Below, piece by piece: positions 45,818 through 64,000 of a stretch of DNA of 64,000 bases. Origin of the DNA: a candidate division FCPU426 bacterium (lineage in GTDB: Bacteria; Oederibacteriota; Muellerivitia; Muellerivitales; Muellerivitaceae); contig CAVRAL010000004.1 in the NCBI GenBank assembly GCA_963719085.1, positions 150,504-214,503 on the forward strand, in the 5' to 3' direction. Below the pieces are notes generated by a model, which searched no databases, was not told the DNA's origin, and saw nothing but the letters and a program-made list of their open reading frames with translations. Numbering within the stretch: position 1 is the stretch's first letter; every line of letters starts with the position of its first letter. The position numbers and the translations under genes were made by a program.

Positions 45818-45858
45818 GAAAAGCTCCTTAAATTTATTAAACCAACAAAAATGGCACA

Positions 45859-45941
45859 CGCAAAGACGCTAAGACGCAAAGTTTTCAAAAACTAAAATTT
45901 TTATTTTCTTGGCGTCTTAGTGTCTTTGCCTGCGCCTTCGG
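45859..45941. repeat. MITE-like palindromic element, copy C (short version)
   Basis: cgcaaagacgctaagacgcaaag ... cttggcgtcttagtgtctttgcctgcgccttcgg. Shares the core AAGACGCTAAG / GCGTCTT with copies A and B. Confidence 0.5.
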
Positions 45942-45951
45942 TTCGATGCTT

Positions 45952-47700: not shown

Positions 47701-47703
47701 GAG

Positions 47704-47976: not shown

Positions 47977-48008
47977 AGCTCCCTCTTCCCTCTTTATTCA
48001 CGAAGCGT

Positions 48009-48869
48009 TTACGGCAACGGCGTTGTCGACAGCCCTCCCACGGAATCCGGCGTGGCGCTCAAATCCGGCCAAAAGGCCAGCATCAGCGCGAACAGGACCA
48101 CCGCGTAAAAAATCTGGCTGGGACTGATCTTCTTGTGCAGCACGAAGGTGAACAACCCCACGATGGCGGTGAAAAAAGTCAGTTTCAGCGTGAACAGGTA
48201 AGCCCGGTGTTCCAGGTCGGACAAGTTCACGAACACGATCAAAACCCCCAAGAGCACCACGGCCGCCAGCCTTAAACCCCGGATGGCCTGTTGGAACCCG
48301 TATTGGCGCAGGGTCAACACCACCTGGTCGCTTTTGCGGTAACCCTGTAAAAAGCCCATCAGCCTGAGGCCCACATGGGCTACGTTATAAACCACCACAA
48401 ATAAAACCGGGATGACCCAATATTGCCCGCCCACCCAGAAGGATTTGGACAAAACCAGCGTCACGGCCAAAAGCCCGCAATAGGGGCGAATGGTGGCCCA
48501 AAATAAATTGTCCCCCATGGCCGCCAAGGGGCCCATCATGCCCACCTTCAGGGCGTTGATCTCATCTTCCTTTTGTTTCTGGCGGTTCTTCGGCTCCGCG
48601 GCCCGCTCGGCTTCCATGCGCGCCACCGCCCCCAAGATGAAGGAAGCCATATAGGGATGGGTGTTGAAATATTCCAAATGCCGGGACAAGGCCGCTCCCC
48701 GCGCCTCGGGCGGATAAAGTTTTTTAAAGACCGGGACCAGGATAAAGGCGACCCCGTAGTTCAGATAACGCTCAAAGTTCCACACCGTCTGCAGGAAAAA
48801 GGACCGGCCAAAAGCCGAGGCCAGGGTCCACCAGCCCAAGCGCGTCGGGTTCGTGTTTTCCGGGCTCAT
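48009..48869 (-). CDS. PTS mannose/fructose/sorbose-family IID component
   Basis: ManZ-like membrane protein. ATG overlaps the IIC stop (ATGA). Confidence 0.8.
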   Translation of the reverse strand: MSPENTNPTRLGWWTLASAFGRSFFLQTVWNFERYLNYGVAFILVPVFKKLYPPEARGAALSRHLEYFNTHPYMASFILGAVARMEAERAAEPKNRQKQKEDEINALKVGMMGPLAAMGDNLFWATIRPYCGLLAVTLVLSKSFWVGGQYWVIPVLFVVVYNVAHVGLRLMGFLQGYRKSDQVVLTLRQYGFQQAIRGLRLAAVVLLGVLIVFVNLSDLEHRAYLFTLKLTFFTAIVGLFTFVLHKKISPSQIFYAVVLFALMLAFWPDLSATPDSVGGLSTTPLP

Positions 48870-49636
48870 CGCGCGTCCCCCCGCCGCATAAAAATCAAAC
48901 TCAAAATAAAACCGGACAAAAGGGCGATCCCCACCAGCAAAACTCCCGGCACGTGTAAAAAAATCGCCAAGGTCATAAATGTGGCGATGGACAAGATGAG
49001 ATAAATCACTGTCTGCCTTTCCACCATCAGGTCAATGACCGCCGAGCAGCCCAGCGCCAAAAGAAGCCAGTAAGCGTAGTAAAGCCCTTCCATCACTTTC
49101 GGGGGCAGGATGAGGAAAAGCCGCCCGGTGAGATGCGCGATAAAAAGCCCGACCAGGGCCATTAAAAAACCTTTGGCGTAAAGCTCCAGCAAAACCACCG
49201 CGTTCAACCATCCAAAAAGGCTCGTATGCCCTTCGGTGGCCAGCTTTTGCGCGAAATGCACCCAGCGCACATGAAATTTCCGAAGCAGCATCTCGGCTTC
49301 CGTACTGAGCGCCGCCAAGGGGATGCAAATGCCGATGGCGTAAGTCATCACCGCTTCCGGCGGGAAGCTTCCCTGCTTGGCCAATTCACAGGCGAAAGCC
49401 GTCGAGATCCCCGCCAGCATCATGATGTCGATGGGCAAATGAGCCCCCACCGGCAGGTCCCCAATCCAAATAATCTCGATCAAAGCCCCCATCTCAAGTC
49501 CCAGCGCGGGCTGGCCGCAAAAAAAGCCAACCAAGGGCCCCACCACAATGGGCCGGGAAATCATGAATTGTCCCACCGCCGAAACGTCGAGGCTTAAAAG
49601 CCCCAGCAGCGCGGGAAGCATCAACCATTCGGTCAT
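48866..49636 (-). CDS. PTS mannose-family IIC component
   Basis: ManY-like multi-TM protein. Start overlaps the GH57 stop. Confidence 0.8.
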   Translation of the reverse strand: MTEWLMLPALLGLLSLDVSAVGQFMISRPIVVGPLVGFFCGQPALGLEMGALIEIIWIGDLPVGAHLPIDIMMLAGISTAFACELAKQGSFPPEAVMTYAIGICIPLAALSTEAEMLLRKFHVRWVHFAQKLATEGHTSLFGWLNAVVLLELYAKGFLMALVGLFIAHLTGRLFLILPPKVMEGLYYAYWLLLALGCSAVIDLMVERQTVIYLILSIATFMTLAIFLHVPGVLLVGIALLSGFILSLIFMRRGDAR

Positions 49637-51813
49637 GAGCCGGCCGCCTCCTTCAATCGCGTGGTGAGGGTTGTCTCAAACGATTTTTTGGGCGCCAAGC
49701 TCACTTCATGGCCGAACAAAAGGCAGGATCCTTGGTACACCCGCTCGAAACCGCCCTCGGACTGGGAAATGGTCTCCACCGGATAACGCGAAAATCGCGC
49801 GGGCTGGGAGCTTTTAAAATCAATTTCTATTTTGAGCCAGCCGTCGGTCATGGAGGCTTGCTCCACATTCATTTCGGTTCCCAGACTGTTCAGCTTTCGG
49901 TCGGTCAGCTCCCGGCCTTTCACGGTGTAAAAGCGGTCCGGCGCGTCCCCGGCCAGAAGGGTCAGGTTCCATTCGGCGAGGAACAAAAATTTCACGGGCC
50001 GGGTTCCCAGGTTCTCGAGTTTGTAGTCGGTCTCTAAATGGAAGCCGCCCGGCGAGAAAGAAAGTTTTTTGGTCAGCCGAAGGGGCACCGGCTCCCCGCC
50101 GTCCTTGAAAAGACCGTCCGCGGTCAATTGAACCTTGAGCGGCTCGCCCTTCTTTTTGGGCGGGGTAACTTTAAAATCAAAAGGCAGGCGGTGAAAGTCG
50201 CTCCACTCGTCATATTGGACCTTCCAAAGCTGCTCCACCGTGGTGCCGGGGGGGACCAACCGCTCCATCAGGCTGGTGCGGACATCCCTGTCGTAAAAAA
50301 GCTTATGCTCCAAACCCGGTTCCTTGGTGCGCACGGTGTCGTGAATGCTGGCCGGCTGGCTTTGGCCCGCGGTTTGGTTGGCCATGGCCAAAAGCTTGCT
50401 GTGGTAGGCTTCCTTGCGGCGGGTCAAGGTATCCGAAAGATTGATGGGGTTTTTAAAGTAATCCAATTCCCGAAGCGATCCGCCCCGCGCCGGTTCCAGC
50501 AAAGCGCTGAAGGCGTTGGTTTCCACCACGATCTCATCCCGGCCGTCTTTGTTGAAGTCGGCCACTTGGGCCTGGATCCCATGGGAAGGCGGCGGCAAAA
50601 GCAAGCCGGCCTCGCGCTCCGCCTCCACCAACTGGCGGTAATTGGCGAACCGCAGATGGTTCAGGTAAAGACCGCCGAAAACCCCGTGCCAATAAGGGCA
50701 ATTGCACTGGCCCCGGTACAAAGCCTGGACCGCCTTCTCCAGCAAGGCTTTTTGTTTGGGTGTGGATTTTTTAGAAAGATGCAGGCGCGCCTTTTCCACT
50801 TTATCCGAGACCCAAAGCATTTTTTTATGCATCTGGTTGCTCTCGGCGTATTTCACTTGGAAGTTGCGCCAAATGCCGCCTTTCAAGTAACGGTCATAGC
50901 GCGGCATCTCGCCCCGGTCCCGGACCTCATGGCGGATTTGCTCGTATTCCTCAGCCGCTTCCGCGGGCAGCGACCACTCGCCCATTTCGGTGTAAGAACC
51001 CGTGGGCAGGGCCAAGGGGCCTTTGGGCGGATGTTCGGCCGCGAATTCGGCGAAGGTGGAGCAGGTGAGCCAATCCGAATTATCGGAAAGCGCCGAAAGG
51101 AACCGCTCGAGCCAGCCTTCCTCGTAAACCCATTTATAGGTATCGGGCCAGCCGCCGAATTTTTCCCCGTCATCCATCAGCACCACGCAGCGGTCGCCTT
51201 CCTCGGTGGCCACCGAGCGCAGGTAATTCAGGCTTTCATTCACGTCTTGGAAGGGAACCAGGTAGCGCATCTTTTCAGAGATCGGGAAAACCCCCACCGT
51301 CTTGCCTTGTTCTTCCATCAGGTAATAGCCGAAGGTCTCGTCCTCGCGAAGGCCGGTGGCCTTGAAGTGCGCGTCATCCATCACGATGTACTTCACCCCG
51401 GCCTCGGCCAGGGGCCGGGTCAAATGGGGTTCCCAAACCCGCTCCGCCACCCACATGCCTTGGACGGGTACCTTGAACTTTTTTTCCAGGATATCGGTTA
51501 AGCGCCGCATCTGCCCCAGTTTGTCCCGGTCGGGCAAAATGGAAAGAATGGGCTCGTACATGCCGCCGGTAAAAAGCTCGATCTGCCCCCGCTTGACCAT
51601 CTCGCCCAAAAGCTTCAAATATTCCGGCTTATTTTCCTCCATCCACTCAAGCAGCGGCCCCGTGGTATGGACGGTGAATTTTACTTTGGGATAACGGTTG
51701 AGGATTTTTAAAAAAGGTTCGTAGGATTGGCGGTAAAGGGTCTCAAAAACCTGCCCGAAATTGCCCACCGGCTGGTGGTTATGAACGCCCAGAATCAAGG
51801 TGACTTTTTTCAT
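49633..51813 (-). CDS. Glycoside hydrolase family 57 (alpha-glucan-active amylase/branching-type)
   Basis: All GH57 signature motifs are present: GVHNHQP, GQIELFTGG, nucleophile-region GMWVAERVW, acid/base VVLMDDGEKFGGWP. ATG overlaps the IIB stop (ATGA). Confidence 0.85.
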   Translation of the reverse strand: MKKVTLILGVHNHQPVGNFGQVFETLYRQSYEPFLKILNRYPKVKFTVHTTGPLLEWMEENKPEYLKLLGEMVKRGQIELFTGGMYEPILSILPDRDKLGQMRRLTDILEKKFKVPVQGMWVAERVWEPHLTRPLAEAGVKYIVMDDAHFKATGLREDETFGYYLMEEQGKTVGVFPISEKMRYLVPFQDVNESLNYLRSVATEEGDRCVVLMDDGEKFGGWPDTYKWVYEEGWLERFLSALSDNSDWLTCSTFAEFAAEHPPKGPLALPTGSYTEMGEWSLPAEAAEEYEQIRHEVRDRGEMPRYDRYLKGGIWRNFQVKYAESNQMHKKMLWVSDKVEKARLHLSKKSTPKQKALLEKAVQALYRGQCNCPYWHGVFGGLYLNHLRFANYRQLVEAEREAGLLLPPPSHGIQAQVADFNKDGRDEIVVETNAFSALLEPARGGSLRELDYFKNPINLSDTLTRRKEAYHSKLLAMANQTAGQSQPASIHDTVRTKEPGLEHKLFYDRDVRTSLMERLVPPGTTVEQLWKVQYDEWSDFHRLPFDFKVTPPKKKGEPLKVQLTADGLFKDGGEPVPLRLTKKLSFSPGGFHLETDYKLENLGTRPVKFLFLAEWNLTLLAGDAPDRFYTVKGRELTDRKLNSLGTEMNVEQASMTDGWLKIEIDFKSSQPARFSRYPVETISQSEGGFERVYQGSCLLFGHEVSLAPKKSFETTLTTRLKEAAGS

Positions 51814-52292
51814 ACTTTGATCTCCGGTAAGTACTTTTCGATGGGTTCCTTCAAGTCCCCGGGCACGGCGCGGATTTCCATCTCAATGCCCCGGGCTTTT
51901 AACCGGCGGAAGGATTCCACGTCCTCGGCCGTCACGCAAAGCACCTTGCAGACCTGCCGGCGGCCTTCGGTGAAATGAAGGCCCCCCACGTTCACCGAAA
52001 CCACCCGGCCCCCTTTTTCGGCGTAAGCCAAAAGGTCCGAGGGAGTGGAAAAAAGCATCAAGGCGCGTTCCCGCTCGGAGCCCATGGACGCGGCCACCGC
52101 CTCCTCCACGGTGAAAAAGCTCACCCGGAGGTTGGAGGGAACGGCCATTTCCATCAGGGTCCGCTGCATGGCGTTCTTGGCGATAGCGTCATTGACCACG
52201 ACCAGGCGCTGGATATTCAGGCTTTTGGACCAGCCCACCACCACTTGGCCGTGGATCAGCCGGTCGTCAATTCGGATCAGTTGGATGTCCAT
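51810..52292 (-). CDS. PTS mannose-family IIB component
   Basis: Phosphorylation-site His in RIDDRLIHGQV. ATG confirmed. Confidence 0.8.
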   Translation of the reverse strand: MDIQLIRIDDRLIHGQVVVGWSKSLNIQRLVVVNDAIAKNAMQRTLMEMAVPSNLRVSFFTVEEAVAASMGSERERALMLFSTPSDLLAYAEKGGRVVSVNVGGLHFTEGRRQVCKVLCVTAEDVESFRRLKARGIEMEIRAVPGDLKEPIEKYLPEIKV

Positions 52293-52317
52293 CTTTGTTT
52301 TCCGCTTCTTCCCGAGC

Positions 52318-52722
52318 TTATTTTTTCTTGAACAGTTCCACCGAGGTCACCACCCCGTCCCGCGTGGATTGCTGGATATCCAGGCTTAACGCGTCCAAAT
52401 CGGTCTCGTCCCGGTGCGAAACCACCTTGATGAGCATGGGCAGATTAACGCCCGTAATCACCTTGACGTTGCGGGTCGTGGCCAGTTGGATGCCCACATT
52501 AAAGGGCGTCCCTCCCAGCATGTCGACCAAAATCAAGGCTCCTTGAGCCTTCGGATCAACCTGATCGACGGCCTTTTCCATTTTCATCCGCAGATTTTCG
52601 GGCGAATCCTTGGAAAGCAGGGGCACCGAAACCATCCCCTCGGTTTCCCCGATGATCATTTTCAGGGTGTCCAAAAGGGCGGTCCCAAACTCCCCGTGCG
52701 TCGCGATCAGTACCCCTATCAT
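52318..52722 (-). CDS. PTS mannose-family IIA component
   Basis: MIGVLIATHGEFG with the active-site His. ATG confirmed. Confidence 0.8.
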   Translation of the reverse strand: MIGVLIATHGEFGTALLDTLKMIIGETEGMVSVPLLSKDSPENLRMKMEKAVDQVDPKAQGALILVDMLGGTPFNVGIQLATTRNVKVITGVNLPMLIKVVSHRDETDLDALSLDIQQSTRDGVVTSVELFKKK

Positions 52723-52755
52723 AAGTCTCCCTCGGTCTTGTTCCCAGGCCCCAAG

Positions 52756-54024
52756 TTACATCACCAAAAGGCGCAGGATGGCCCGGCCCAATTTTTCACG
52801 GTCATGGCGCACGAAATCCTGCTGGTGCAAAAGATTGGCCCGGACCACCCGGGCCCCTAATTTTTTCACCTCGGCGTCGTCCACCACCACGGGCTCCTGG
52901 CCGAAGGCCGCGTAACGGGCCAAAAGCCGCGTGGGCACCTTTTCCTTGTTCACCATGACGTAATGCACGAAGTTGGGCGCGGTGTGTTTGAACAAAGCCC
53001 GCACATGGTCCGACACGGTGAAAAAATCGGTCTCGCCGGGCTGGGTCATCACATTGCAGATAAAAATTTTAACGGCCCGGGAAAGCGCGATCGTCTCGGC
53101 GACCTCCGGAATGAGCAGGTTGGGGATGATGCTGGTAAAAAGGCTGCCCGGGCCCAGGACGATGGCGTCGGCTTCCAAGATCGCTTTCAGGACTTCTTTA
53201 TTCGGCCGGATCTTGCTTTCCTTGAGCGTGATCTCGTCGATGGGGGATTTGACCAGGGGAATGGCGGACTCGCCGGTCACGATTTTCCCGTTCTTAAACC
53301 GCGCCCGCAAGGTCATGGAATCAAAGGTCACCGGCATGACGGTCCCCCGGGTGGCCAGCACCTTGCTGGATTCTTCCACGGCCTTTCCAAAGTCCCCGGT
53401 GATTTCCCCCATGACGGTGATGAAAAGGTTCCCGAAACTGTGGCCCTTCAGGTCGCCGTGGCCCTTAAAACGGTATTGGAAAAGATCGTTCAACAGGGTT
53501 TGCTGGTCGGCCAAGGCCACGATGCAATTGCGGATGTCGCCCGGCGGCGGCGTGCCGAAGTCCTTGCGCAGCCGGCCCGAGCTTCCCCCGTCGTCGGCCA
53601 CCGTCACGACCGCGGTCAGGTTGCTGGTGAATTGTTTCAATCCGTAAAGCACGTTGGGCAGGCCCGTGCCGCCGCCCACGCACACGATCCGGGGGCCGCG
53701 CTTCAAGCGGGCCTGCCGGTAGGCGATGTTCATGAATTCTTTTTCCCGGTGCGGAAGCAGCACGGTCAAAACGGCGTAAAGCGCCCGCCGGATGGCGTAA
53801 ACCCCGAGGACGATGCCGCCCAGGATCAGGATGAAATCAACGAACTTTAAATGCCGGAGGGTGTCCCCGATCTCCAGGATGATCGGCGGGTTATAGTGAA
53901 CCCCGTGGAGGCGTCGGCCGAGGATGCCGGAAAAACCCATGAGCAGGATCACGGCCGCGCCGGCCATCAAAAAAAACCAGCGTTTGAGCCGCATGCCCGG
54001 ATAAAGCCAGCGCAATCCCAGCAT
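52756..54024 (-). CDS. YvcK/UPF0052 (CofD-like) gluconeogenesis factor with an N-terminal membrane anchor
   Basis: IVCVGGGTGL...VADDGGSSGRLR family core. About 110 aa of N-terminal TM segments. ATG overlaps the hprK stop by 1 nt. Confidence 0.8.
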   Translation of the reverse strand: MLGLRWLYPGMRLKRWFFLMAGAAVILLMGFSGILGRRLHGVHYNPPIILEIGDTLRHLKFVDFILILGGIVLGVYAIRRALYAVLTVLLPHREKEFMNIAYRQARLKRGPRIVCVGGGTGLPNVLYGLKQFTSNLTAVVTVADDGGSSGRLRKDFGTPPPGDIRNCIVALADQQTLLNDLFQYRFKGHGDLKGHSFGNLFITVMGEITGDFGKAVEESSKVLATRGTVMPVTFDSMTLRARFKNGKIVTGESAIPLVKSPIDEITLKESKIRPNKEVLKAILEADAIVLGPGSLFTSIIPNLLIPEVAETIALSRAVKIFICNVMTQPGETDFFTVSDHVRALFKHTAPNFVHYVMVNKEKVPTRLLARYAAFGQEPVVVDDAEVKKLGARVVRANLLHQQDFVRHDREKLGRAILRLLVM

Positions 54025-54998
54025 TAAGGCTTCCTTCGTTTGCGCGGCGGCAGGGCCCGGCGAACGTTTTCTTCCTGCATCATGCGGCTCACCCGGTCCG
54101 CGAATTCCTGGGCCGTGAAATAACCCAGCTTCATCAACCGGTGGTTCATGGAAGCCACCTCAATGATGACCGCCAGGTTCCGTCCAGGCCGGACCGGGAT
54201 GAGAAACATCGGGATTTCCACGTCGAAAATTTTGTGCTTGGCGGGCGTCAGCCCCAGCCGGTCGTATTCTTTTTTGTTGTCCCAATCTTCCAAGCGGACC
54301 ACGAGCTCAATGCGCTTTTTGTCCCGGATCGCGCCCACGCCAAAAAGGCTTTCCACATTGATGATGCCCAATCCGCGGATTTCCATGTGGTGCTTGATGA
54401 TTTCGGACCGGGCGCCCATCAGGATGCGGTTGGCCAGGCGTTTGATATAAACCAAGTCATCGGCCACCAAGCGGTGGCCGCGTTCCACCAATTCCAGCGC
54501 GCACTCGCTTTTGCCGATCCCCGAATTTCCCAGGATGAGAACCCCGACGCCGTAAATATCCAGCAAGGTTCCATGGATGGTGGTCTCCGGCGCGAACTCC
54601 TCTTCCAGAAATACCGAAACCTCGGACACGAACTTGGTCGTGGGAGTCGGCGTGGTGAACAAGGGGATTTTATGCTCCCGGGCCTCGGCCACCATTTCCG
54701 CCGGCGGCTTCATTTTATGGGTGACGATGATGCAGGGCATGGAATAGGAAAATATCTTGTGGAAAATGGCCCGTCGCTGGGCCGGTTTGAGGGTTTGCAG
54801 GTAATGGATTTCGGTCTTGCCCAGAATTTGAAGGCGCTCATAGGCGAACCATTTGAAATAACCGGTCAGCGCCATGCCGAGCCGGTTGATGTCCACGCTC
54901 ACGATGTGCCGGGAGGCCATTCCCTCCTCCACCACGGGGGTCAGGTGAAGGCGTTCCTTGGCTTGCTGGAGGAGGGCTTCCACGGATATTTTTTTCAT
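54024..54998 (-). CDS. hprK: HPr kinase/phosphorylase
   Basis: Walker A GNSGIGKSE and C-terminal kinase domain. ATG confirmed. Confidence 0.85.
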   Translation of the reverse strand: MKKISVEALLQQAKERLHLTPVVEEGMASRHIVSVDINRLGMALTGYFKWFAYERLQILGKTEIHYLQTLKPAQRRAIFHKIFSYSMPCIIVTHKMKPPAEMVAEAREHKIPLFTTPTPTTKFVSEVSVFLEEEFAPETTIHGTLLDIYGVGVLILGNSGIGKSECALELVERGHRLVADDLVYIKRLANRILMGARSEIIKHHMEIRGLGIINVESLFGVGAIRDKKRIELVVRLEDWDNKKEYDRLGLTPAKHKIFDVEIPMFLIPVRPGRNLAVIIEVASMNHRLMKLGYFTAQEFADRVSRMMQEENVRRALPPRKRRKP

Positions 54999-55059
54999 TC
55001 GCTCGCTCCCGAAAAAGAAAATTCATCGCTTGGCTTGGCCCGGTCTTCGAAGCGCCGCC

Positions 55060-55524
55060 TCAGTGTTTGAGTTTTTCTTCCTCTTGGATGATCTTGATCA
55101 CTTCGTCGGGAGTCTTGGCGGACAGGAGGGACTTGCGGAAATACTTGTCTTTCAAAAGGCTGGAGATGCGGGCCAGGGCCTTCAAATGCGCGCCGGCCGC
55201 CCCTTCGGGCGCGACCAACAAGAAAAAAATATTCACGGGCTCCCCGTCCAACGCGTCAAAGCTGATCCCTTCCTGGGAGACCCCAAAAGCCGCCGCCAGA
55301 TCCGAGACCGTGTCCGACTTTCCGTGGGGGATCGCGATGCCTTGGCCGATTCCGGTGGAACCCAATTCTTCCCTTTCCATCAGGGTTTGGAGCATTTTCT
55401 TTTTGTCTTTCACCTTGCCGGACTTGGCCAGCAGCTCCACCAATTCCTTGATGGCATCCTTCTTGATCTTGGACTCCAGGTTCAACTTAATGGCGTCCAC
55501 GGTTAGAAAATCCAGTATCTGCAT
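55060..55524 (-). CDS. ptsN: PTS IIA-Ntr (nitrogen regulatory EIIA)
   Basis: EIIA-Fru/Ntr fold with His in GIAIPHGK. Canonical position between hpf and hprK. Confidence 0.8.
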   Translation of the reverse strand: MQILDFLTVDAIKLNLESKIKKDAIKELVELLAKSGKVKDKKKMLQTLMEREELGSTGIGQGIAIPHGKSDTVSDLAAAFGVSQEGISFDALDGEPVNIFFLLVAPEGAAGAHLKALARISSLLKDKYFRKSLLSAKTPDEVIKIIQEEEKLKH

Positions 55525-55620
55525 CGAAAATCCTCCTGGGCCTTTGCCCTTGAAGCGCTCAATTTCACCCTACCACGATCGGCCCTGTTGAAACCAGACC
55601 GCCCCGGCGTCCGGATCGCC

Positions 55621-56160
55621 TTAATATTCCGGCTCAATCAAGCCGATGTGATGGTCTTTGCGTTTATAAACCACGCCGGTCCGGCCGGTCTCGGCGTCAT
55701 AAAAAACCATGAATTCATCCTTCGACTTGGCCAGCTGGGAGGCGGCCTCTTCCACCGACATGGGTTTGGCGGAATACTGGCGGGATTGGATGATCTCAAA
55801 CTCTTCGCCCGCGGCGGAAGGCGGGATGAGCCCATGGGTGACGGACTTAAAGGGAGAGATTTCACGGCCCCGATGACGCCCCACCCGGATGTCTTTATGT
55901 TTCTTGGCTTGGGTTTCCAGTTTTTCCAAGGCCCCGTCGATGGAATTATACATGTCCCGGGAAACGGCTTTGGAGCTCATCTTCAATCCCTTGGCCGACA
56001 GGTTGATTTCGCAGGTATGGCCTTTTTTCTCGAAGTTCAGGATGACATGGGCTTCTTTGATCTTGCCTAAATAGCGCTCCACCCGCTTGATCTTGTCTTC
56101 CACCGACAAGCGCAGGCCCTCGGTCAACTTTTCATGACGGCTGGTGATGTTAATTTTCAT
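55621..56160 (-). CDS. hpf: Ribosome hibernation-promoting factor (long form)
   Basis: Start MKINITSRH (ATG 56160). The track TTG extension was rejected. S30AE/RaiA domain plus a C-terminal dimerisation extension. Confidence 0.85.
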   Translation of the reverse strand: MKINITSRHEKLTEGLRLSVEDKIKRVERYLGKIKEAHVILNFEKKGHTCEINLSAKGLKMSSKAVSRDMYNSIDGALEKLETQAKKHKDIRVGRHRGREISPFKSVTHGLIPPSAAGEEFEIIQSRQYSAKPMSVEEAASQLAKSKDEFMVFYDAETGRTGVVYKRKDHHIGLIEPEY

Positions 56161-56316
56161 TAATTTTTCCGATGACAACGAAAGTGCTGAAAAACCCGCT
56201 TATTCTAACACCCGAAAAAGGGAAGTCAATGAACACCGACCCATCGGACGGACGACGAAACCAGGCAAATGGCGAGAATAAACAAAAAGGCAAACGGGGT
56301 TTTTCGGCGGAGGTTC

Positions 56317-57837
56317 TTAATACTTTCGGCGTTGGGAGGCGGAAGGGATGCGCAATTCTTCCCGGTACTTGGCGATGGTACGCCGGGCGATAAAGATGCC
56401 CTGGTCCTTCAAGAGCTGGGTTAATTTTTGGTCCGAATGGGGTTTTTGCGGCGCTTCTTGATCCACCAGTTCTTTTATTTTTTCCTTCACCGAAAGCGAG
56501 GACACATCAAGCCCGGCCTCCGATTCCAACCCGCTGGTGAAAAAATACTTGAGCTCAAAAAGCCCCCGGGGCGTTTGCACGTACTTGTGGGTGGTCACCC
56601 GGCTCACGGTGGACTCATGCATCCCGATCATGTCCGCCACTTGTTTTAAGGTGAGGGGTTTCAGGCCGGTGAGGCCCAGTTCCAAGAAATCGCGCTGGAT
56701 GCGGAAGATGGATTCAGTCACCCGGTAGATGGTCTTGCGGCGCTGCTCGATGTTTTTGATGAGCCACATGGCCGATTGGATTTTATTGTCCAGGAAAGCT
56801 TTGGTTTCCTTGGTCTTAACGGCGTTTTTATCCTTGAGCATCTTTCGGTAATAAGAGGAAATACGCAGCCGCGGCACCGGCTCGTCGTTCAAGACCACCA
56901 CATACTCCCCCTCGATTTTACGCACGCTCACGTCCGGGGTCACGTATTTGGTGTTATTTTCCTCGAAAGAGCGGCCTGGTTTGGGCTCCAGCGTGGCCAC
57001 CAGCGCCAATATTTCGCGCAGTTCCTCGGCGGTAATTTCCAGTTTTTTTTGGATGACGGGAAAACGCCTTTTTTCCACATCCTCAAAATGCTCGGCCACC
57101 ACCCGGTAGGCCTTGCGGGCCAAGTCCCCGGTTTTATTTTCCAGTTGAAGGATGAGGCATTCTCGCAAATTGCGGGCCCCCACGCCCGGCGGGTCGAAGG
57201 TTTGGATGAGTTGGAGCACTTGTTCCATTTGCTGAAGCGTGACGCCCTGGGCCTTGGCCATTTCTTCCAGGGGATCGATCAAGTAGCCGTTCTCATCCAG
57301 GTTGCCGATGAGCGTTTTCCCGAGTTTTTTTTCGGCCTCGTCCTTGCCCGACATCAGCAGCTGCCATTCCAAATGCTCGGCCAAAGTGGTCTGACGGGTG
57401 ATGGAGGCTTCCAGGAAATCGTGCTTTTCTTGGTCGTCCCCGCCGTTATTTTCCCCCTGGCCCCCGTAATACTCGCCGTATTCCTCGCCCTCGCCGTAAA
57501 GGGCCCAGGTTTCTTTAGTCATCCGGTCGCCGTCGCGCAATTGCTCGACGACGTCGGTTTGATGCCGCTCCTTCGCGCGCTCGTAATAAAGATCGCTTTC
57601 GGTGGGGGCTCCGCTGTCGTCCACTTCGGCGGGTCCGGCGATTTCGGCCTTTTCAGCCGCGGTGGCGCCTTCGCTGGGCTCTTCCTCTTCCAGAACGGGG
57701 TTTTCGACCATTTCTTTCTCGACCCAATCCTTCAATTCCAGGGTGGAAAGTTGGAGGATCTTCATGGCCTGCTGCAGCATGGGCGTCATCACCATGCGCT
57801 GCTGCATCTTTTGATTCATCCGGAATTCTTGGCGCAT
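56317..57837 (-). CDS. rpoN: RNA polymerase sigma-54 factor
   Basis: N-terminal QQRMVMTPMLQQAMKILQLSTLEL and the C-terminal RpoN box ARRTIAKYRE. Start chosen at ATG 57837 by alignment to the canonical RpoN N-terminus. Upstream alternatives at 57849 and 57909 exist. Confidence 0.8.
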   Translation of the reverse strand: MRQEFRMNQKMQQRMVMTPMLQQAMKILQLSTLELKDWVEKEMVENPVLEEEEPSEGATAAEKAEIAGPAEVDDSGAPTESDLYYERAKERHQTDVVEQLRDGDRMTKETWALYGEGEEYGEYYGGQGENNGGDDQEKHDFLEASITRQTTLAEHLEWQLLMSGKDEAEKKLGKTLIGNLDENGYLIDPLEEMAKAQGVTLQQMEQVLQLIQTFDPPGVGARNLRECLILQLENKTGDLARKAYRVVAEHFEDVEKRRFPVIQKKLEITAEELREILALVATLEPKPGRSFEENNTKYVTPDVSVRKIEGEYVVVLNDEPVPRLRISSYYRKMLKDKNAVKTKETKAFLDNKIQSAMWLIKNIEQRRKTIYRVTESIFRIQRDFLELGLTGLKPLTLKQVADMIGMHESTVSRVTTHKYVQTPRGLFELKYFFTSGLESEAGLDVSSLSVKEKIKELVDQEAPQKPHSDQKLTQLLKDQGIFIARRTIAKYREELRIPSASQRRKY

Positions 57838-57997
57838 ATTCCATGCCATCCAGCGCGTTTCTTCCCTCCGAGGGAAAAAGAGGCGCACAAGTTTGATGCC
57901 AAAAAACAAACCTCAATCCACTGACTAAATTATACTCTTTTTCATTGGGGAAGTATCACTTTGGGAAAAAAGACAAGGCCTTTGAAAAGGGCCCGGA

Positions 57998-59230
57998 TCA
58001 AGGCTCATCCCAGGCTTTTAACTCAAACTTGGTTTTTTCCCACTGCCGGATCCAATAGTCCAAGTCGAAGGGCTGGGGAAATTCCAGCGATCCTGAGGGA
58101 AACTTTTGGCCGCCCTTAAAGACCCATTGGATGGTCCTGAAATTTTGAGCGTTCGCCATGGGGTCGTGTTGATAAATCACCAAATCGGCCCACTTCCCTT
58201 TTTCCAGGCTTCCCATCTTTTGTTCCATGCCTAAAACTTTGGCCGCTTCCAAGGTGGCCATCTTCAAGCATTGGGCCGCGGTGACGCCCACGCTTTGAAG
58301 GTCTTTCCATTCCCGGATCGACACGCCAAAGGGCATGTGGGGATTACCCGCGTCCGTGCCATAAACGATTTTTCCGCCCAGGGAAAGAAAACGCTCGGCG
58401 TTCTTCAGGCATTGCTGGTGCCCCAAATGAAACCCATGCTGGCAATGCTGTCCAAAAGGATGCTCGGAGCGGCGCTGCCATTCTTCCGCCCAACCCGCGT
58501 GCGCGTGCAGGGTGGGAACAATTTTAATTTTTCGCCGGATCGCTTCTTTCCAAAGGTCGTCCGAGATGGGCCGGGACGGCATATGGGCCACCTCGTCCAC
58601 CTTGGCCGCCACGCAGGCCTCAAAATCCCGCTCATCCGTGATATGGGCCGTCACCTTTTTGCCCAAGTCATGGGCCGCCTCGACCACGGCGTCGACCTCG
58701 GTTTGGGAAAGGCAGGGTCCCAGCTCATGCTCCAAACCCAGCTTGATCAGGTCCATCCCCAACCCCGCTAACTGCTGGACTTTTTCCTGGGCTTGGTAAC
58801 GGCCGGTCAAACGCAGCGCCAACTGGGGGCCCCAAACATTCTCCGGGTAGCCTTTGGGGCAGGTTAAAACCGGCCCGGAAGAAAAGATCCGGGGCGAGGC
58901 GATGAGTCCGGTTTGTTCCCGCGCTTTCCATTCGAGCGCGTGAAAAGGATCCGACGCCAAATCCCGGACGGCGGTCACGCCGTTATGAAGAAAGCTGGCC
59001 AGCGTGGTTTCGTTGATGAGGGCGTGCACATGCAGGTCGATGAGTCCGGGCAGGACGAAAAAATTCCGGCCGTCGATGACTTCCCCCGCCTCATACGCCG
59101 GCGCCTTCGCATGGGGGCCCACATAGTCCAGCGTCTCGCCGGTGATGAGCAGGGTGGCATCCGTCAGCACCTTTTCGGCGGCGCCGGTGTAGATCGTGGT
59201 TTTTTCAATGGCGGTGGATACCTTCAGCAT
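57998..59230 (-). CDS. Metal-dependent amidohydrolase-family protein
   Basis: HxH metal motif (LIDLHVHAL) and the amidohydrolase TIM barrel. ATG confirmed. Confidence 0.7.
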   Translation of the reverse strand: MLKVSTAIEKTTIYTGAAEKVLTDATLLITGETLDYVGPHAKAPAYEAGEVIDGRNFFVLPGLIDLHVHALINETTLASFLHNGVTAVRDLASDPFHALEWKAREQTGLIASPRIFSSGPVLTCPKGYPENVWGPQLALRLTGRYQAQEKVQQLAGLGMDLIKLGLEHELGPCLSQTEVDAVVEAAHDLGKKVTAHITDERDFEACVAAKVDEVAHMPSRPISDDLWKEAIRRKIKIVPTLHAHAGWAEEWQRRSEHPFGQHCQHGFHLGHQQCLKNAERFLSLGGKIVYGTDAGNPHMPFGVSIREWKDLQSVGVTAAQCLKMATLEAAKVLGMEQKMGSLEKGKWADLVIYQHDPMANAQNFRTIQWVFKGGQKFPSGSLEFPQPFDLDYWIRQWEKTKFELKAWDEP

Positions 59231-59258
59231 GGCTTTGATCTTTTCCCTTTTGTCCCGC

Positions 59259-60134
59259 TCATTTAAAAACTTGATTCAAGAGCCAGGCCAGCCGGATGCC
59301 GGCCTTTTCCAATTGCCGGTCCACAATAAACCGCATGGCGCCGTTGCGATAGTCCCTCGGCAAGTCCGGCGCGTCCCAGCTTGAGCGGGCGGGTCCTTGG
59401 GGCAGTTCGGAGTAGATGTCGTTTTTGGCGATTAAGTAGCTTTCAAAAGCCCAATCCGCCGCTTCGCCCTTCTGCCACTGGGCCATGTCTTGCGGGCTGA
59501 TCCGGCTTTCCAAACGGGCCGCCAAATCCCGGGGCACTTCAACGGGTTTTTCTTCAATCAGATGGTCCCAATAGCTGTGGAGCCGCACCCAGCGTCGGGC
59601 GCGGCCGTTAAAACTACGCTCCAAGACCAGGATTTTCTCGTTCCCACCCCGGTCCCCGTCATTGGCGCAATGGAGCGGTTGATGCAGGTCGCCCACAAAA
59701 TGAATGAGGAACTTAAGCGCCTCGCGTTTTTTGTCCGGTGAGTCCTCGGGATTTTTGAGGACCGCCAAATCAAACTCAATTTGGCCGACCACGCAATTGC
59801 CTTGAACGCAATAATCCGGGATGTCCGCCCGGGTGAGGTTTTTCCTCACATCCAGATCAATGTGGTGCCAATCGGCGGTTTCGGGTCTTTCTTGAACGAT
59901 GTCGTCGGCCCAGCTCGAGACCCAAGCCATGGTGTCGGGGGCCAAAAGCGCCCTCACCGCCCGGTCGGCCTTCGGGGTCAGGTGATCCTGGGCGATGTAA
60001 GCCACCGTGGCGTGCCCCACCGGTCCCCAGGCGCGGGTCGGCCGGGGAAAAGAAAAAAGAAACAAGACTAGGCAAAAATAAAAAAGCCCGGGGAAGCCCC
60101 AGGCTTTTTTATTTTTAAGCGCGATTAAAATCAG
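59259..60134 (-). CDS. Secreted S1/P1-family zinc nuclease; start codon unresolved
   Basis: Mature N-terminus WGPVGH, with Zn ligands in the [12 protein letters not shown] region. The predicted signal peptide ([29 protein letters not shown]) has no in-frame ATG or GTG and overlaps a terminator-like hairpin. The upper coordinate is approximate. Confidence 0.5.
60074..60106 (-). terminator. Terminator-like hairpin (agcccgggg-aa-gccccaggct plus T-run on the minus strand) 25 nt after the myo-inositol-1-phosphate synthase stop
   Basis: Eight-bp GC stem with one G-U pair, followed by TTTTTATTTTT on the minus strand. Lies inside the presumed nuclease signal-peptide coding region. Confidence 0.4.
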
Positions 60135-61231
60135 GCTTTTACCTTTTCCCCCACCTTGCCGTGCTGGGCGATAAATTGGTCCACGAACTCTTTGGCTTCC
60201 GCGTCGGAGTATTGGACCGGCGGCGTCTTCATAAAATAAGACGAGGGGCCTTCCAAGGATCCGCCGATTCCCGCGTTCAAAGCCAGCTTGCAGCAGCGGA
60301 TGGCGTCGATGGCCACGCCCGCGCTGTTCGGCGAGTCCCAAACTTCTAATTTCATCTCAATCGTGACCGGCACATTGCCGAATTCCCGGCCTTCCAAACG
60401 GATGTGGGCCCATTTGCGGTCGTTCAACCAAGGCACGTAATCTGAAGGGCCGATATAGATATTTTCCGGGTCGATCGGGTGCGCCAGTTGGCTCACCACC
60501 GCGCCGGTTTTGGATATTTTTTTGGACTCCAGGCGCTCGCGTTCCAGCATATTTTTAAAATCCATGTTGCCGCCGAAATTAAGCTGGGACGTGTGATCCA
60601 GCACCACGCCCCGGTCGCTGAACAGTTTGGACAAGACCCGGTGGGTGATGGTCGCGCCGAGCTGGGCCTTGATGTCGTCGCCCACGATGGGAAGCCCCGC
60701 GTCCGCGAATTTTTTGGCCCAGGCGGGATTGGACGCGATAAAAACCGGCATACAATTCACCACGCCCACGCCGGCCTTGATGGCCTCGTTCATATAAAAC
60801 TTAGTGGCTTCCTCACTGCCCACCGGCAGGTAATTGATCAGGATATCGGTCTTGGTTTCTTTTAATCGTTTGGCCACGTCCACGGGCTTCTCGGCCGATT
60901 CCTTCACCACTTCCCGGTAATATTTGCCCAGGCCGTCCAAAGTATGGCCCCGGCTGACCTTCACATTTAAAGCCGGCACGTCGGAAAATTTGATCGTGTT
61001 GTTGATCGGCGCGAAGATCGCGGCGCCCAGGTCTTTGCCGACCTTGTTTTCATCCACATCAAAAGCGCAGGAAAACTCCAGGTCACTGACATGGTATTTG
61101 CCCAAACGCGGATGCATCAGTCCCGGGATGAAACCGTCTTCTTCCGCGTCTTTGTAAAAAAAGACGCCTTGGATCAAGGAGGAAGCGCAGCATCCCACGC
61201 CGACGATCGCCACCCGAATTTTCGATGCCAT
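60131..61231 (-). CDS. myo-inositol-1-phosphate synthase (archaeal/bacterial short type)
   Basis: Start [19 protein letters not shown] (ATG 61229-61231, AGGAGG ribosome-binding site) with NAD-binding and catalytic domains. The track ORF is extended 160 aa upstream by the GC-rich frame. Confidence 0.85.
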
Positions 61232-61257
61232 ACCCAGCCTCCTGAATATTAAACGCC

Positions 61258-61857
61258 TTATTTTCGCGTCTGCTTGAACACATGGTAAATTCTTTGGAAA
61301 ACCGTGACCAGTGATAAAAGCGCCAAAATCCAAAGCATGGCCTTCGGCTGCCCCATCAAGAGACCGGCTCCCAAAATGAAAACCCGCACCGGCCGGGTCA
61401 CCCAGCCTCCCTGGTTTTGAAGGCCCAACCCTTCCGCCCGGGCCCGGGTATAAGAAATGAGTTGGGATAAAAATCCCGTCCCAAAGGCCAAAGCCGTTCC
61501 CGCCGCGTCTTGCGCTCTCCCGTAATATAGTACAAAACCCAGAAAAACGAGGGCCTCCGAGATCCGGTCCATGGTGGAATCCCAAAAAGCCCCGAAAACT
61601 CCCGGGCTTTTCAAGTGCCGGGCCAAGGCTCCGTCCAAAAGGTCGAACAGGCTGGCGGCGAAAAGCCAAAAGGCGGCCGCGACCCATTCTCCCTGCGCCA
61701 AGGTCAGGCAAACCGGGACGGAAAAAAGAACGCCCAGGAGGGTCAAAAAATCAGGCTTAACGCTTAGACGCGCCAGCCCCTTGAGAAGGGGCGCTAATAA
61801 AAGATCTAAAATTTTTTTCAGCGACTGACGGGATGAGGCTGCGGATTTTTTTTTAAT
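61258..61857 (-). CDS. CDP-alcohol phosphatidyltransferase (phosphatidylinositol-phosphate / archaetidylinositol-phosphate synthase-like); start non-canonical
   Basis: DG(x)2AR...G(x)3D(x)3D motif [31 protein letters not shown]. The in-frame ORF is open up to the lptB stop. The conserved N-terminal region [23 protein letters not shown] precedes the track TTG. Best candidate start is ATT at 61857, with AGGAG 7 nt upstream. Confidence 0.6.
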
Positions 61858-61886
61858 GGCCGGCTCCTGGCGAAGGCTAGGGACGT

Positions 61887-62621
61887 TTACAGGGAAAAAC
61901 GCTCGCCCAGGTAAATTTCACGGGCCTTTTTATTGGAAGCCAGTTTGGCGGCGGTTCCGGACAGCAGAATTTTTCCCTCAAACATGATATAGGCCCGGTC
62001 CACGATGGAAAGGGTTTCCCGCACATTGTGGTCGGTGATGAGCACCCCGATTTTTTTCTTTTTCAGATGGCGGATGATGTTTTGGATGTCCTGAACCGCG
62101 ATGGGGTCGATCCCCACAAAGGGCTCATCCAGCAACATAAAAGCCGGATCGGTCGTGAGCGCGCGCGCGATCTCCACCCGGCGCCGCTCGCCTCCCGAAA
62201 GGGTATAGGCCTTTTGCTTGGCCAAGCGGGTCACATTGAATTCTTCCAGCAGGTTTTTCACTCGCTTTTTGCGCTCCAACGGCGTAAGGGGGGTCAATTC
62301 CAGGATCGCCATCAAGTTTTCCTCAACGGTCAATTTGCGGAAAATGGAGGCTTCCTGGGGAAGATAACCGATCCCGAGCCTGGCCCTTTTGTACATGGGC
62401 ATGTGGGTGACGTCTTGAAGCTGGCCGTCTTCCTCAAAATAAACATGGCCGGCTTCGGGCGCGATGAATCCCGTGGTCATGTAAAAAGTGGTGGTCTTGC
62501 CGGCGCCATTGGGTCCCAACAGCCCCACAATTTCCCCCTGTTTCACCTCAATGGAAACATGGTCGACGACCTTCTTTTTTCCGTAGCTCTTCACCAGCTC
62601 ATGGGTCCGTAGGATTCGCAT
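61887..62621 (-). CDS. lptB: LPS export ABC transporter ATP-binding protein
   Basis: Start [16 protein letters not shown] (ATG 62621). Walker [25 protein letters not shown] and the LptB-type C-terminus. Confidence 0.85.
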
Positions 62622-62721
62622 CAAGCCCCTCAATCGGAATGGTTTCAGCGCCGCCCCAGCATACTGTAGGCCCCGGTCCCTTGAAACGAAATTTCGCAAG
62701 GGCCGGTTTATCCCAAAAAGG

Positions 62722-63681
62722 TTATAGACCCGGAATCGGAACCGGGACAGGGCCTCCCGCCGTTCCACTGGGGGCGGTTTTCACCGCGCCCATTTGCGCG
62801 CTCGAGCCGGCCGCGGGTCCTGAACCCGTTGCCGGACCGGAAGCGGCGTTGGTCGCCGTCCCCATCCCGGACGGGAGGGGCGAGGAAGTTCCCGCGCCGG
62901 GCGGCTTGGTCGGGACCGGCTGGGGCGAACTGTAAAATTCCGCCTCCGCCATCCCCTCCACAATCACTCGGTGGTCGCCGGAGAGGTTGGTGGTAATGCG
63001 CCGGCCCGCGAGAACCCCTTGGGGCGTAAAAACCATGGGATTTTCCTCCAGAATCACTTGGTCGGTTTTGCCGTCATAGGTGGCCAACTGGGCTTCCGAG
63101 CGGCCCGTGTCATGGAGAATCTCCACATCCTGATGGGCCACCACTTTTTTCTGCTGGGTATAAAGCTCCATTTGGCGGCTGCGGATGGTCATGGGCAGCC
63201 CGTTTTCATCCAGGGTGTCGATCACCGGATGATCGTGGGCGGTGATCTGGTCCATCAAATCGTGATAGTCCAGGTTGCCGCAAGTCAGGTGCATATTTGA
63301 TTTTAAGTCGTTGACCCGCACATGGCCCAAAGCCGTGGCCACACGGTTGTTGGAAGAGGCTTCCACTTGGTCGCTGTTGAGGATGACCTGGTCATGGGTC
63401 ACCTTCACGGCGCCGTTAAAAAGCGTCAACCCATTCAGTTTGTCGAAACTCAATTGGTCGGAAGTAATGTTGACCGGCTTTTCGGGCGATATGGATTTAA
63501 GCCGGTCTCCATCCAGGAGGGCTTTCTCGGTCGCCGGAGCCGACCCGCCATTCGGGGCCGCGGGACTGGTCGGCCCCTGCTGGGCGCGGGCTTGGGAAAA
63601 AAACGCGAGAAAAATCCCGAGGGCCCACAGGCCCGATTGCCGGTTAAAAAGGTTTGGGTCGGTTAAAATTCTCGACTTCAT
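62722..63681 (-). CDS. lptA: LptA/OstA-N-domain periplasmic LPS transport protein with a Pro/Gly/Ser-rich C-terminal tail
   Basis: Signal peptide. OstA-like beta-jellyroll ([36 protein letters not shown]...). ATG confirmed. Confidence 0.7.
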
Positions 63682-64000
63682 TCGTATCCCTCAATTGAGT
63701 ATGGACGTCCTTGGTGAACTGAATGTTATTGAGTTCGGTATCGGCCACCAGCCCCACCGCCGTGATATCGTCCGAGCCCTTAAAAACATGCACTTTCTCA
63801 TCGGTGTGGATCATATCCGTGTCCGGATCCCAAGCCAGTTTTTCCGTTTCCAGCTTGGACCCATTTTCGGTGATGAGTTCCACGTGGCCCGAAACCAAGG
63901 TAGCGTTGGTCTCGGTATTGATGACCGCCTCATCCGCGGTCAAGTTGGAAACCATCCGGTTGTGTTTGTAATACTCGGCGAAAATATCATCCGTATCAGC
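63644..64000 (-). CDS. lptC: LptC-like protein, C-terminal part (N-terminus beyond the window end)
   Basis: The ORF stays open upstream of the track Met to the window edge. OstA/LptC-like beta-strand pattern. Position matches lptC-lptA-lptB synteny. Confidence 0.5.
   Translation of the reverse strand, partial: ADTDDIFAEYYKHNRMVSNLTADEAVINTETNATLVSGHVELITENGSKLETEKLAWDPDTDMIHTDEKVHVFKGSDDITAVGLVADTELNNIQFTKDVHTQLRDTNEVENFNRPKPF

Follow-up and report, generated by a model that had tools for sequence, protein, structure and literature searches.

Proteobacteria carry a conserved lptC-lptA-lptB-rpoN-hpf-ptsN cluster (the yrbG-npr region of Escherichia coli). Genes with a conserved start other than AUG, GUG or UUG are, to our knowledge, very few, comprising infC, pcnB and a few lineage-specific cases. 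Described precedents are infC, pcnB and, with ATC, Deinococcus dnaA (PMC2830850), and the discrimination against AUU-type codons is a function of initiation factor 3 (IF3) and the basis of infC autoregulation (PMC2830850; PMC3592434). Bacterial inositol lipids are held to be rare, being known mostly from Actinobacteria and from some Spirochaetes and Bacteroidetes (PMC9246714); the BT_1522-BT_1526 cluster of Bacteroides thetaiotaomicron encodes a phosphatidylinositol phosphate (PIP) synthase (PIPS; BT_1523), a PIP phosphatase (BT_1525) and an inositol-3-phosphate synthase (MIPS; BT_1526) (Heaver et al. 2022, PMC9246714). Here we analyse a 64-kb stretch of DNA from a candidate division FCPU426 bacterium (contig CAVRAL010000004.1; henceforth the window, meaning the whole stretch), in which a CDP-alcohol phosphatidyltransferase gene and a MIPS gene lie between lptB and rpoN. 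We consider it probable that the pair forms an operon for the phosphatidylinositol (PI) route in an uncultured, FCPU426-related diderm, with the transferase translated from an AUU codon at 61857 and the enzyme thereby held at a low level. The enzymes are ordinary members of known families; the lineage-wide AUU/AUC start and the conserved position between lptB and rpoN are new.

Start codon of the transferase gene

The transferase frame (minus strand) is open from 61917, within the 3' end of lptB and 20 codons ahead of the ATT, to its stop at 61258, and the first ATG, GTG or TTG within it is codon 38 counted from the ATT. This agrees with the preliminary description of the window, which had found no ATG or GTG as far back as the lptB stop and the family N-terminus ahead of the only TTG; it had also pointed to the ATT, with AGGAG at 7 nt, and we find the same Shine-Dalgarno (SD) sequence with a 6-nt spacer (ccggcc), the ATT starting at the seventh nucleotide. 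The codons that follow are AAA AAA AAA; E. coli infC likewise begins AUU AAA. A start at codon 38 would remove the predicted helices at residues 7-30 together with the nearly invariant D18 and P23, and in PIP synthases the juxtamembrane helix forms the groove for CDP-diacylglycerol (CDP-DAG) (PMC4634129).

The A9 homopolymer at codons 2-4 occurs in the window (61840-61854, minus strand) and in the related locus L006, with an A7 run in L001 (1420-1426) and one of A8 or more in L004. Homopolymers of this kind invite polymerase slippage and sequencing errors; here the run is read in frame as Lys-Lys-Lys/Arg. We considered and rejected an indel in it that masks a normal start: the 32 nt that separate the lptB stop from the run are free of ATG, GTG and TTG in every frame, and no change in the length of the run could bring a normal start into use. 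The frameshift hiding an ATG that the preliminary description had entertained is also excluded, as is a read error, by the presence of the ATT in five independent assemblies (window, L006, L001, L002 and L003).

In the whole of the DNA compared, an SD-like 5-mer has an in-frame ATT or ATC 5-8 nt after it in 3.6% of cases, so a single such site could be chance and its significance comes from recurrence in relatives. When the window was scanned for an SD with ATT, ATC, ATA or CTG before long open reading frames (ORFs), no other gene was found to need a non-canonical start, the other candidates having an adjacent canonical start or lying deep within an ORF; within the limits of these 64 kb the non-canonical start is gene-specific.

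The nearest named genomes are metagenome-assembled genomes (MAGs) of candidate division FCPU426, whose PIPS, LptB and RpoN are 41-48%, 76-84% and 49-73% identical to those of the window, and closer metagenome contigs reach 68-92% PIPS identity (a metagenome scan with a single protein gave 4 loci, a genome scan with an alignment being far more productive). Taking the first aspartate of the DxxDG motif as the anchor in each locus, we tabulated the candidate starts in frame with it and the SD of each. In 13 distinct loci, comprising the window and 12 relatives that are 41-92% identical and were assembled independently from other samples, an SD core of 4-7 nt is followed after a spacer of 5-8 nt by an in-frame ATT or ATC (Table 1). 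Their distance to the first motif aspartate is 69-71 codons (L008 was placed by N-terminal alignment). In L001 and L010-L013 the frame opens just 4-8 codons ahead of the ATT or ATC, and in L010 and L012, as in the window, no canonical codon could take its place without loss of the N-terminal helix. The second codon is AAA or AAG in 9 of the 13.

Table 1. Start sites of the transferase gene in the window and related loci, given as SD core, spacer length (nt) and start codon, with the second codon where noted; identities refer to the window protein.
Locus	Start site	Remark
Window	AGGAG-6-ATT AAA	no canonical start before codon 38
L006 (92%)	AGGAG-6-ATT AAA	
L001, L002, L003 (78%)	GGAGGAG-6-ATT AAA	in-frame TAG 9 codons upstream
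L005 (68%)	AAGGAG-5-ATT CCC	
L094 (71%)	AAGGAG-5-ATT CCC	
L008 (55%)	AGGAG-7-ATC AAA	motif anchor failed (apparent frameshift)
L010	GGGAG-5-ATT AAA	no canonical start at all
L011	GGAG-6-ATC	
L012	AAGGAAG-6-ATC AAA	
L013	AAGGAG-8-ATC AAA	
L014	GAGGAG-7-ATT	
L095	AGGAG-6-ATC AAG	
L097	GGGAG-6-ATC AAG	
L096	AAGG-9-ATT AAA	weak SD, counted ambiguous

Spacers and flanks of these loci have fully diverged. By comparison with L006, codons 1-12 of the window carry four synonymous and one nonsynonymous change, and by comparison with L001 five synonymous and three nonsynonymous changes, the latter all Lys/Arg/Gln exchanges; this mostly synonymous change indicates that the stretch is translated. As an outgroup we used about 67 PIPS loci from other phyla, almost all of which start with ATG or GTG 60-66 codons before the anchor, and an SD with ATT or ATC lacking an adjacent canonical start was found in 0 of the ~67. 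The suggestion of a probable AUU start in the preliminary description is thus borne out by an SD and ATT/ATC at the same position in 13 loci, with coding-type substitutions downstream.

Four outgroup genes (L022, L059, L069 and L076) look start-less, and some of the MAGs are apparently long-read assemblies that may carry indels. In L022 (Rubrobacteraceae, ~6970-7010) the PIPS gene has no in-frame start and a TTG lies one frame off at the stop, and in L008 (1146-1732) tblastn recovers it in two segments; both cases have the look of assembly indels and not of biology, the former of the long-read kind.

Database proteins of the clade are often 162-178 aa long and begin near the first transmembrane helix (TM1; P0022, P0037, P0049-P0051, P0057, P0058, P0066, P0074, P0083 and P0088). 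For three such shortened proteins (L095, L096 and L097) the prediction of an upstream start held in 3/3: in each, an ATT or ATC stands in frame 24-28 codons ahead of the annotated start, at the family N-terminus, in two cases behind a 5-nt core at 6 nt and in L096 behind only AAGG at 9 nt. It is likely that annotations in the clade are shortened since gene callers cannot use ATT or ATC. Many entries would then lack ~25-35 residues including the juxtamembrane helix, and cloning from them would give an inactive enzyme.

Several observations weigh against a conserved AUU/AUC start. At least 11 hits among 18 loci would have a probability of ~1e-12 if the loci were independent; as they are related, this is an upper bound on significance, and binomial figures overstate independence. 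L095-L097 were chosen for their shortened annotation and so test the prediction, not the frequency. Canonical starts also exist in the clade: L090 has GGGAG-6-TTG in the same place; L007 (TTG) and L019 and L020 (ATG) have one at or near the same position; and in L091 (460-464) and, as judged by its gene coordinates (4642-5376 and 5373-5999), P0007, a sub-lineage 60-63% identical, a GTG overlaps the lptB stop by 4 nt as GTGA, giving direct translational coupling instead of AUU/AUC. An in-frame ATG lies 9-12 codons downstream in L001 and L094 and is possibly usable. L092 is ambiguous, its ATG lying four codons upstream of the ATC with one GGAG serving both, as are L093 and L096 with a weak SD (AAGG-9-ATC or ATT). 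Finally, the claims about both start and lipid rest on sequence comparison throughout. On balance, the comparison supports a lineage-wide conserved AUU/AUC start that shares the hallmarks of infC/pcnB-type genes, namely no apparent usable canonical start, a well-spaced SD and conservation in orthologues.

Of the competing explanations, the one that survives best, although we hold it to be somewhat unlikely, is that the transferase is made mainly by termination-reinitiation after lptB, AUU being tolerated through coupling and not selected as a throttle or IF3 sensor. The lptB stop precedes the start by 29 nt in the window and L006 and by less in L008 and L012, the sub-lineage with the GTGA overlap is coupled outright, and in E. 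coli reporters reinitiation 20 nt after a stop gives about 40% of initiation (PMC3592434). However, the ATT or ATC lies anywhere from about 13 to >200 nt beyond the lptB stop in the clade, and the SD with its ATT or ATC persists in L011 and L093 despite an intervening hairpin. Reinitiation is compatible with AUU as the start, and differs only in why the codon is there.

We regard it as improbable that translation begins further downstream, at CTG codon 13, ATT codon 16 or TTG codon 38, with the SD and ATT being fortuitous or a stand-by site. L001 has an ATG and L004 a TTG in place of the CTG at codon 13, L094 has an ATG at codon 10, gene callers picked such starts in many database entries, and the NCBIfam models for PIPS and for archaetidylinositol phosphate (AIP) synthase (AIPS) match only from about residue 12-15. 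In the window, however, codons 13, 16 and 38 have no SD, the SD is always placed for the upstream ATT or ATC, and the mostly synonymous substitutions in codons 1-12 and the loss of helices, D18 and P23 from a codon-38 product also speak for the upstream codon. The Lys/Arg-rich N-terminal extension is moreover present in L090 (TTG) and L091 (GTG), which start in the same place.

Identity of the transferase and predicted pathway

The transferase carries the complete CDP-alcohol phosphatidyltransferase motif that the preliminary description had recognised in part (D-G-x2-A-R...G-x3-D-x3-D); the full signature, D72-x2-D75-G76-x2-A79-R80...G89-x3-D93-x3-D97, is invariant in an alignment of 20 clade sequences, and PF01066 scores 60 bits. 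Among NCBIfam models, PIPS (132.6 bits) and AIPS (131.4) outscore those for DIPPS (36.7) and pgsA (28.3) by about 100 bits, with the Bacteroides BT_1523-type PIPS at 95 bits, and this ranking is identical in all 20 clade members tested. The best sequence match in the Protein Data Bank (PDB) is the mycobacterial PIP synthase 6h53 (E=2e-25). In the phmmer alignment to it, S135, R138, P156, R158 and R189 of the window protein, which are invariant or nearly so within the clade, correspond to S132, K135, P153, R155 and R195 of the Mycobacterium tuberculosis enzyme (MtPIPS). There, R155 and R195 bind the phosphate of inositol-1-phosphate and are reported to be absolutely conserved across PIP synthases, though not among the PI synthases of eukaryotes (Clarke et al., PMC4634129); S132, K135 and P153 contribute too, and all five residues were functionally tested (PMC4634129).

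An AF2 model built with 20 homologues (predicted local distance difference test, pLDDT, 88.9) has eight helices, with residues 7-20 and 22-30 preceding TM1 at 35-54, and reproduces the N-terminal juxtamembrane helix and six transmembrane helices of solved PIP synthases. In a Foldseek search the top 14 PDB matches were all PIP synthases (TM-score 0.76-0.80), followed by AF2299; DIPPS ranked lower (TM-score 0.71; 4mnd was 19th), and PSS and PgsA lower still (~0.55). The preliminary description had named placement relative to PgsA, AIPS and DIPPS among its checks, and both the profile ranking and the fold comparison favour PIPS/AIPS, not PgsA. As judged from these comparisons, the transferase is a member of the PIPS/AIPS clade, on a divergent, separate branch, and is the equivalog of neither. 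Its scores fall below both equivalog cut-offs (170 bits for PIPS, NF045883; 180 for AIPS, NF040950; the cut-offs for the BT_1523-type and DIPPS models are 350 and 580), and the donor lipid (CDP-DAG or CDP-archaeol) is not readable from sequence; both points tell against a firm assignment as PIP synthase.

PgsA was rejected on family scores (TIGR00560, 28.3 bits against a cut-off of 109; NF008090, 20.8 against 304; in the shared motif region only) and on fold (7drj, TM-score 0.56-0.57, ranks 23-24). A DIPPS/IPCT route was likewise rejected, the DIPPS score lying far under its cut-off and no nucleotidyltransferase domain being found in eight neighbouring genes. JGI labels clade homologues 'CDP-diacylglycerol--glycerol-3-phosphate 3-phosphatidyltransferase', a generic name to which the family scores give no support.

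It is quite improbable, in our estimate more so than a downstream start, that the enzyme makes another product such as di-myo-inositol phosphate, an archaetidyl-type lipid or phosphatidylglycerophosphate. The practically equal scores for archaeal AIPS and bacterial PIPS, both under their cut-offs, speak in favour of such a product. Against it stand the low DIPPS score with no cytidylyltransferase domain in the ORF or its neighbours, the PgsA results just given, the presence of the arginine pair specific to inositol-phosphate acceptors, and a host LPS (lipopolysaccharide)-transport system typical of ester-lipid bacteria.

That the gene is decaying after loss of an ancestral ATG, or that its ATT is a sequencing or assembly error, so that no functional transferase is made, is scarcely credible: one ATG-to-ATT transversion would explain the window alone, the adjacent A9 run is an error-prone context and the L008 and L022 contigs show apparent frameshifts, but the ATT recurs in assemblies from different samples, ATT/ATC persists across lineages 41-48% identical with all catalytic residues invariant, the ORF is intact, its partner MIPS is 98-99% identical among close relatives, and no indel could supply a start.

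The second gene encodes, as the preliminary description had stated, a short-type MIPS: PF01658 scores 120.7 bits, 1gr0 (M. tuberculosis Ino1) matches residues 3-354 (E=1.2e-145), TIGR03450 scores 545.7 bits over residues 5-354, under its mycothiol-specific cut-off of 638, and the N-terminal Rossmann GxGxxxS motif of the short bacterial/archaeal type can be read from the sequence. The predicted MIPS would convert glucose-6-phosphate into L-myo-inositol-1-phosphate, which the putative PIP synthase would condense with CDP-DAG to phosphatidylinositol phosphate; a further phosphatase would yield PI from PIP. The two genes would thus serve the bacterial two-step PI route, the lipid product being predicted from the enzymes' families. 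Of the inositol lipids or solutes foreseen in the preliminary description, the lipids fit the enzymes, whereas di-myo-inositol phosphate solutes appear unlikely, that route being unsupported because the neighbourhood lacks a cytidylyltransferase domain. A point on the other side is that no PIP phosphatase was found in the operon or in the domain-scanned part of the window. S1/P1 enzymes also have phosphomonoesterase activity, and the neighbouring, conserved S1/P1-family phosphoesterase may, speculatively, be the missing phosphatase. A conserved MIPS-PIPS operon in an LPS-bearing soil and peat candidate phylum would widen the distribution of inositol lipids, and its fixed place beside LPS-export genes suggests an envelope role for the lipid.

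Gene order between lptB and rpoN

Table 2 lists the features of the locus; the minus-strand order is lptC, lptA-like, lptB, CDP-alcohol phosphatidyltransferase, MIPS, S1/P1-nuclease-like, amidohydrolase and rpoN. The insertion of two inositol genes between lptB and rpoN that the preliminary description had reported is therefore real but incomplete, as the intervening genes number four. Save for these the lptCAB-rpoN-hpf-ptsN cluster is intact. The lptB stop (TAA, 61889-61887) precedes the transferase start by 29 nt, and the gap from the transferase stop to the MIPS ATG is 26 nt.

Table 2. Features of the lptC-rpoN region of the window.
Feature	Position	Strand	Remark
lptC	63955-63647	-	N-terminal end overlaps that of lptA (63681 vs 63647)
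lptA-like	63681-62725	-	319 aa
lptB (LPS export ABC ATPase)	62621-61887	-	PF00005 123.8 bits
Shine-Dalgarno AGGAG	61868-61864	-	6-nt spacer
Transferase, PIP-synthase-like	61857-61258	-	199 aa from ATT; gene-finder start TTG 61746
ATT, proposed AUU initiation codon	61857-61855	-	
MIPS (inositol-3-phosphate synthase)	61231-60131	-	366 aa; ATG start, AGGAGG ahead
Intrinsic terminator-like hairpin	60117-60073	-	GC stem 60104-60086 between A tract and U tract
S1/P1-nuclease-family gene	60065-59259	-	PF02265 189.4 bits; short hydrophobic N-terminus
Amidohydrolase-family gene	59230-57998	-	PF01979 91.3 bits
rpoN (sigma-54)	57849-56317	-	all three sigma-54 Pfam domains

The hairpin after MIPS has a folding energy of -28.8 kcal/mol (z = -5.84), with 0 of 200 shuffles as stable in RNA folding, and a terminator scan recovers the same stem-loop on the plus strand. 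It closes a lptB-transferase-MIPS unit that looks like the tail of an lpt operon. No known leader or riboswitch explains the lptB-transferase junction, as an Rfam scan of the whole window gave no match at gathering thresholds, and a promoter scan of 56000-64000 found no excess of sigma-70-like sites (4, against 3.4 in shuffles).

The amidohydrolase gene matches best the NCBIfam model for a Caulobacter-type Xaa-Pro dipeptidase (126 bits, well under its cut-off). The last ~75 residues of the LptA-like protein (62725-62950, minus strand) form a tail with a high content of Pro, Ala, Gly and Ser, which stops ~100 nt before the lptB start. Lying 3' of rpoN are hpf, ptsN (EIIA-Ntr), hprK, a CofD/YvcK-like gene and PTS-mannose components; the stretch 44747-56178 (minus strand) as a whole, with hpf, ptsN, HPr kinase, the CofD/YvcK-like gene, PTS mannose-family IIB/IIC/IID, enzyme I and a bacterial-type phosphoglucose isomerase, is an unusually complete sigma-54/PTS regulatory block, and a GH57 amylase/glucanotransferase sits among its PTS mannose-family IIB/IIC/IID genes.

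The order lptC-lptA-lptB-PIPS-MIPS-(S1/P1)-amidohydrolase-rpoN recurs in L011-L014, L019 and L020 (the S1/P1 gene being absent from the last two) and, up to the contig ends, in L001, L006 and L010; L090-L097 agree with it over the stretch that each contig covers, with L093 having three other genes between MIPS and S1/P1, one of them for a 1321-aa cellulase-domain protein. The LptB of the window is 76-97% identical to that upstream of the transferase in every related locus, and further upstream, beyond lptC, relatives carry kdsD, kdsC and lpxL-like genes. Elsewhere, in phyla such as Chloroflexota, Actinomycetota and Nitrospirota, PIPS and MIPS frequently lie close together but PIPS never adjoins lptB, which indicates that the insertion is old and lineage-specific.

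Co-transcription with lptB shows no obvious conservation, with spacers of 150-230 nt between lptB and the transferase in L011 and L014 and a hairpin after lptB in L011 and L093, two distant relatives. The L011 hairpin (~6945-6978), between lptB and the transferase start, reads GCTGAAAAAGTCC-N7-GGACTTTTTCAGC, and a similar one in the corresponding interval of L093 (~8024-8050) reads GAAAAAGTCC-N7-GGACTTTTTC; downstream of each stands ...CTGTTAA..., some 20-30 nt ahead of the ATC, and the window has no such hairpin. The element could be an lptB terminator, an attenuator or a conserved regulatory element. The envelope-linked regulation proposed in the preliminary description gains from the conservation of gene order across the FCPU426-related clade, yet stays a hint, as we infer co-transcription with lptB.

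Proposed expression and comparison with known systems

With lptC-lptA-lptB directly upstream and a strong terminator behind it, the pair is most probably transcribed together with the LPS-transport genes or right after them. Initiator tRNA would read the AUU at 61857, giving a protein that begins MKKKSAASS..., and the good SD at 6 nt and the A-rich codons 2-4 would assist initiation; the strong SD, optimal spacing and AAA second codon look like features that compensate for a weak codon. Ribosomes that terminate at lptB may account for some of the initiation. AUU and AUC would be expected to initiate several-fold to ~100-fold below AUG, proofread by IF3: in one E. coli reporter they gave 1-2% of AUG (bioRxiv 063800), and in another system AUU was 6-8 times below AUG or GUG (PMC3592434). 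Such weak initiation would keep the membrane enzyme low relative to lptB and MIPS, and transferase output may be sensitive to IF3 availability. Clade members that do not use AUU or AUC mostly have UUG or the lptB-coupled GUG and rarely AUG, a pattern that fits selection for a low, fixed transferase output relative to lptB and the soluble MIPS. In vivo use of the AUU, co-transcription and a throttling or IF3-sensing role are what we infer from these sequence features.

A more far-reaching proposal, which we consider unlikely though worth stating, is that the phylum-wide AUU/AUC of this enzyme, the committed one in inositol-phospholipid synthesis, acts as an IF3-sensed valve linking envelope PI to the state of the translation apparatus or of growth, with the gene hard-wired between lptCAB and the rpoN-hpf-ptsN module for stress and nitrogen. 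If true, a conserved non-canonical start would for the first time be seen outside genes for translation, RNA and replication, and IF3 fidelity would for the first time be connected with the lipid composition of membranes. A lipid synthase that keeps AUU/AUC over deep divergence would in itself offer a clean, testable case of dosage control at the level of the start codon. In the literature we found no lipid-synthesis gene with a lineage-conserved AUU/AUC start and no inositol-lipid operon fixed between lptB and rpoN; titles and abstracts of part of the FCPU426 literature do not mention inositol lipids, which does not prove their absence.

The window shares its flanking genes and their order with the lpt-rpoN cluster of Proteobacteria, and differs from it in the PIPS, MIPS, S1/P1-like and amidohydrolase genes intercalated between lptB and rpoN, an arrangement conserved across the FCPU426-related clade. 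Its transferase resembles archaeal AIP synthase in its near-equal score over the full length and in the acceptor inositol-1-phosphate; however, the archaeal enzyme uses CDP-archaeol, whereas the host of the window is bacterial and has Lpt, Kds and LpxL-type genes. The B. thetaiotaomicron cluster likewise combines MIPS and PIPS in a diderm outside Actinobacteria, with the same PIP intermediate expected, but the match to the BT_1523-type model is under its cut-off, the genomic context is different, and the window operon has neither a PgpA-like PIP phosphatase nor a PI-ceramide synthase.

The actinobacterial PIP synthases (M. tuberculosis PgsA1/PIPS, 6h53/6h59; Renibacterium salmoninarum, 5d91) have the same fold as the window model (TM-score 0.77-0.80, 33-35% identity), and together with Ino1 (1gr0) share the CDP-alcohol motif, the acceptor-pocket S, K/R, P and two arginines, the MIPS partner and the same predicted route, PIP and then PI. 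Unlike them, the window genes belong to an LPS-containing candidate phylum and are adjacent, between lptB and rpoN; the clade uses AUU/AUC, not ATG/GTG, and no PIM-type mannosyltransferase genes adjoin.

With respect to its start, the gene is closest to those with conserved non-canonical codons, namely infC, E. coli pcnB, Deinococcus dnaA (ATC) and rpsL, and Enterococcus ebpA (ATT). In infC/pcnB-type genes, too, AUU or AUC follows a good SD at the point at which homology requires the protein to begin and is conserved in orthologues, and limited, IF3-sensitive expression would likewise be expected for the window gene. In contrast to them, the window gene, known here from sequence, encodes a predicted membrane lipid synthase, unconnected with translation or RNA metabolism, and its clade alternates between AUU and AUC, with occasional UUG, GUG and AUG, within one candidate phylum.

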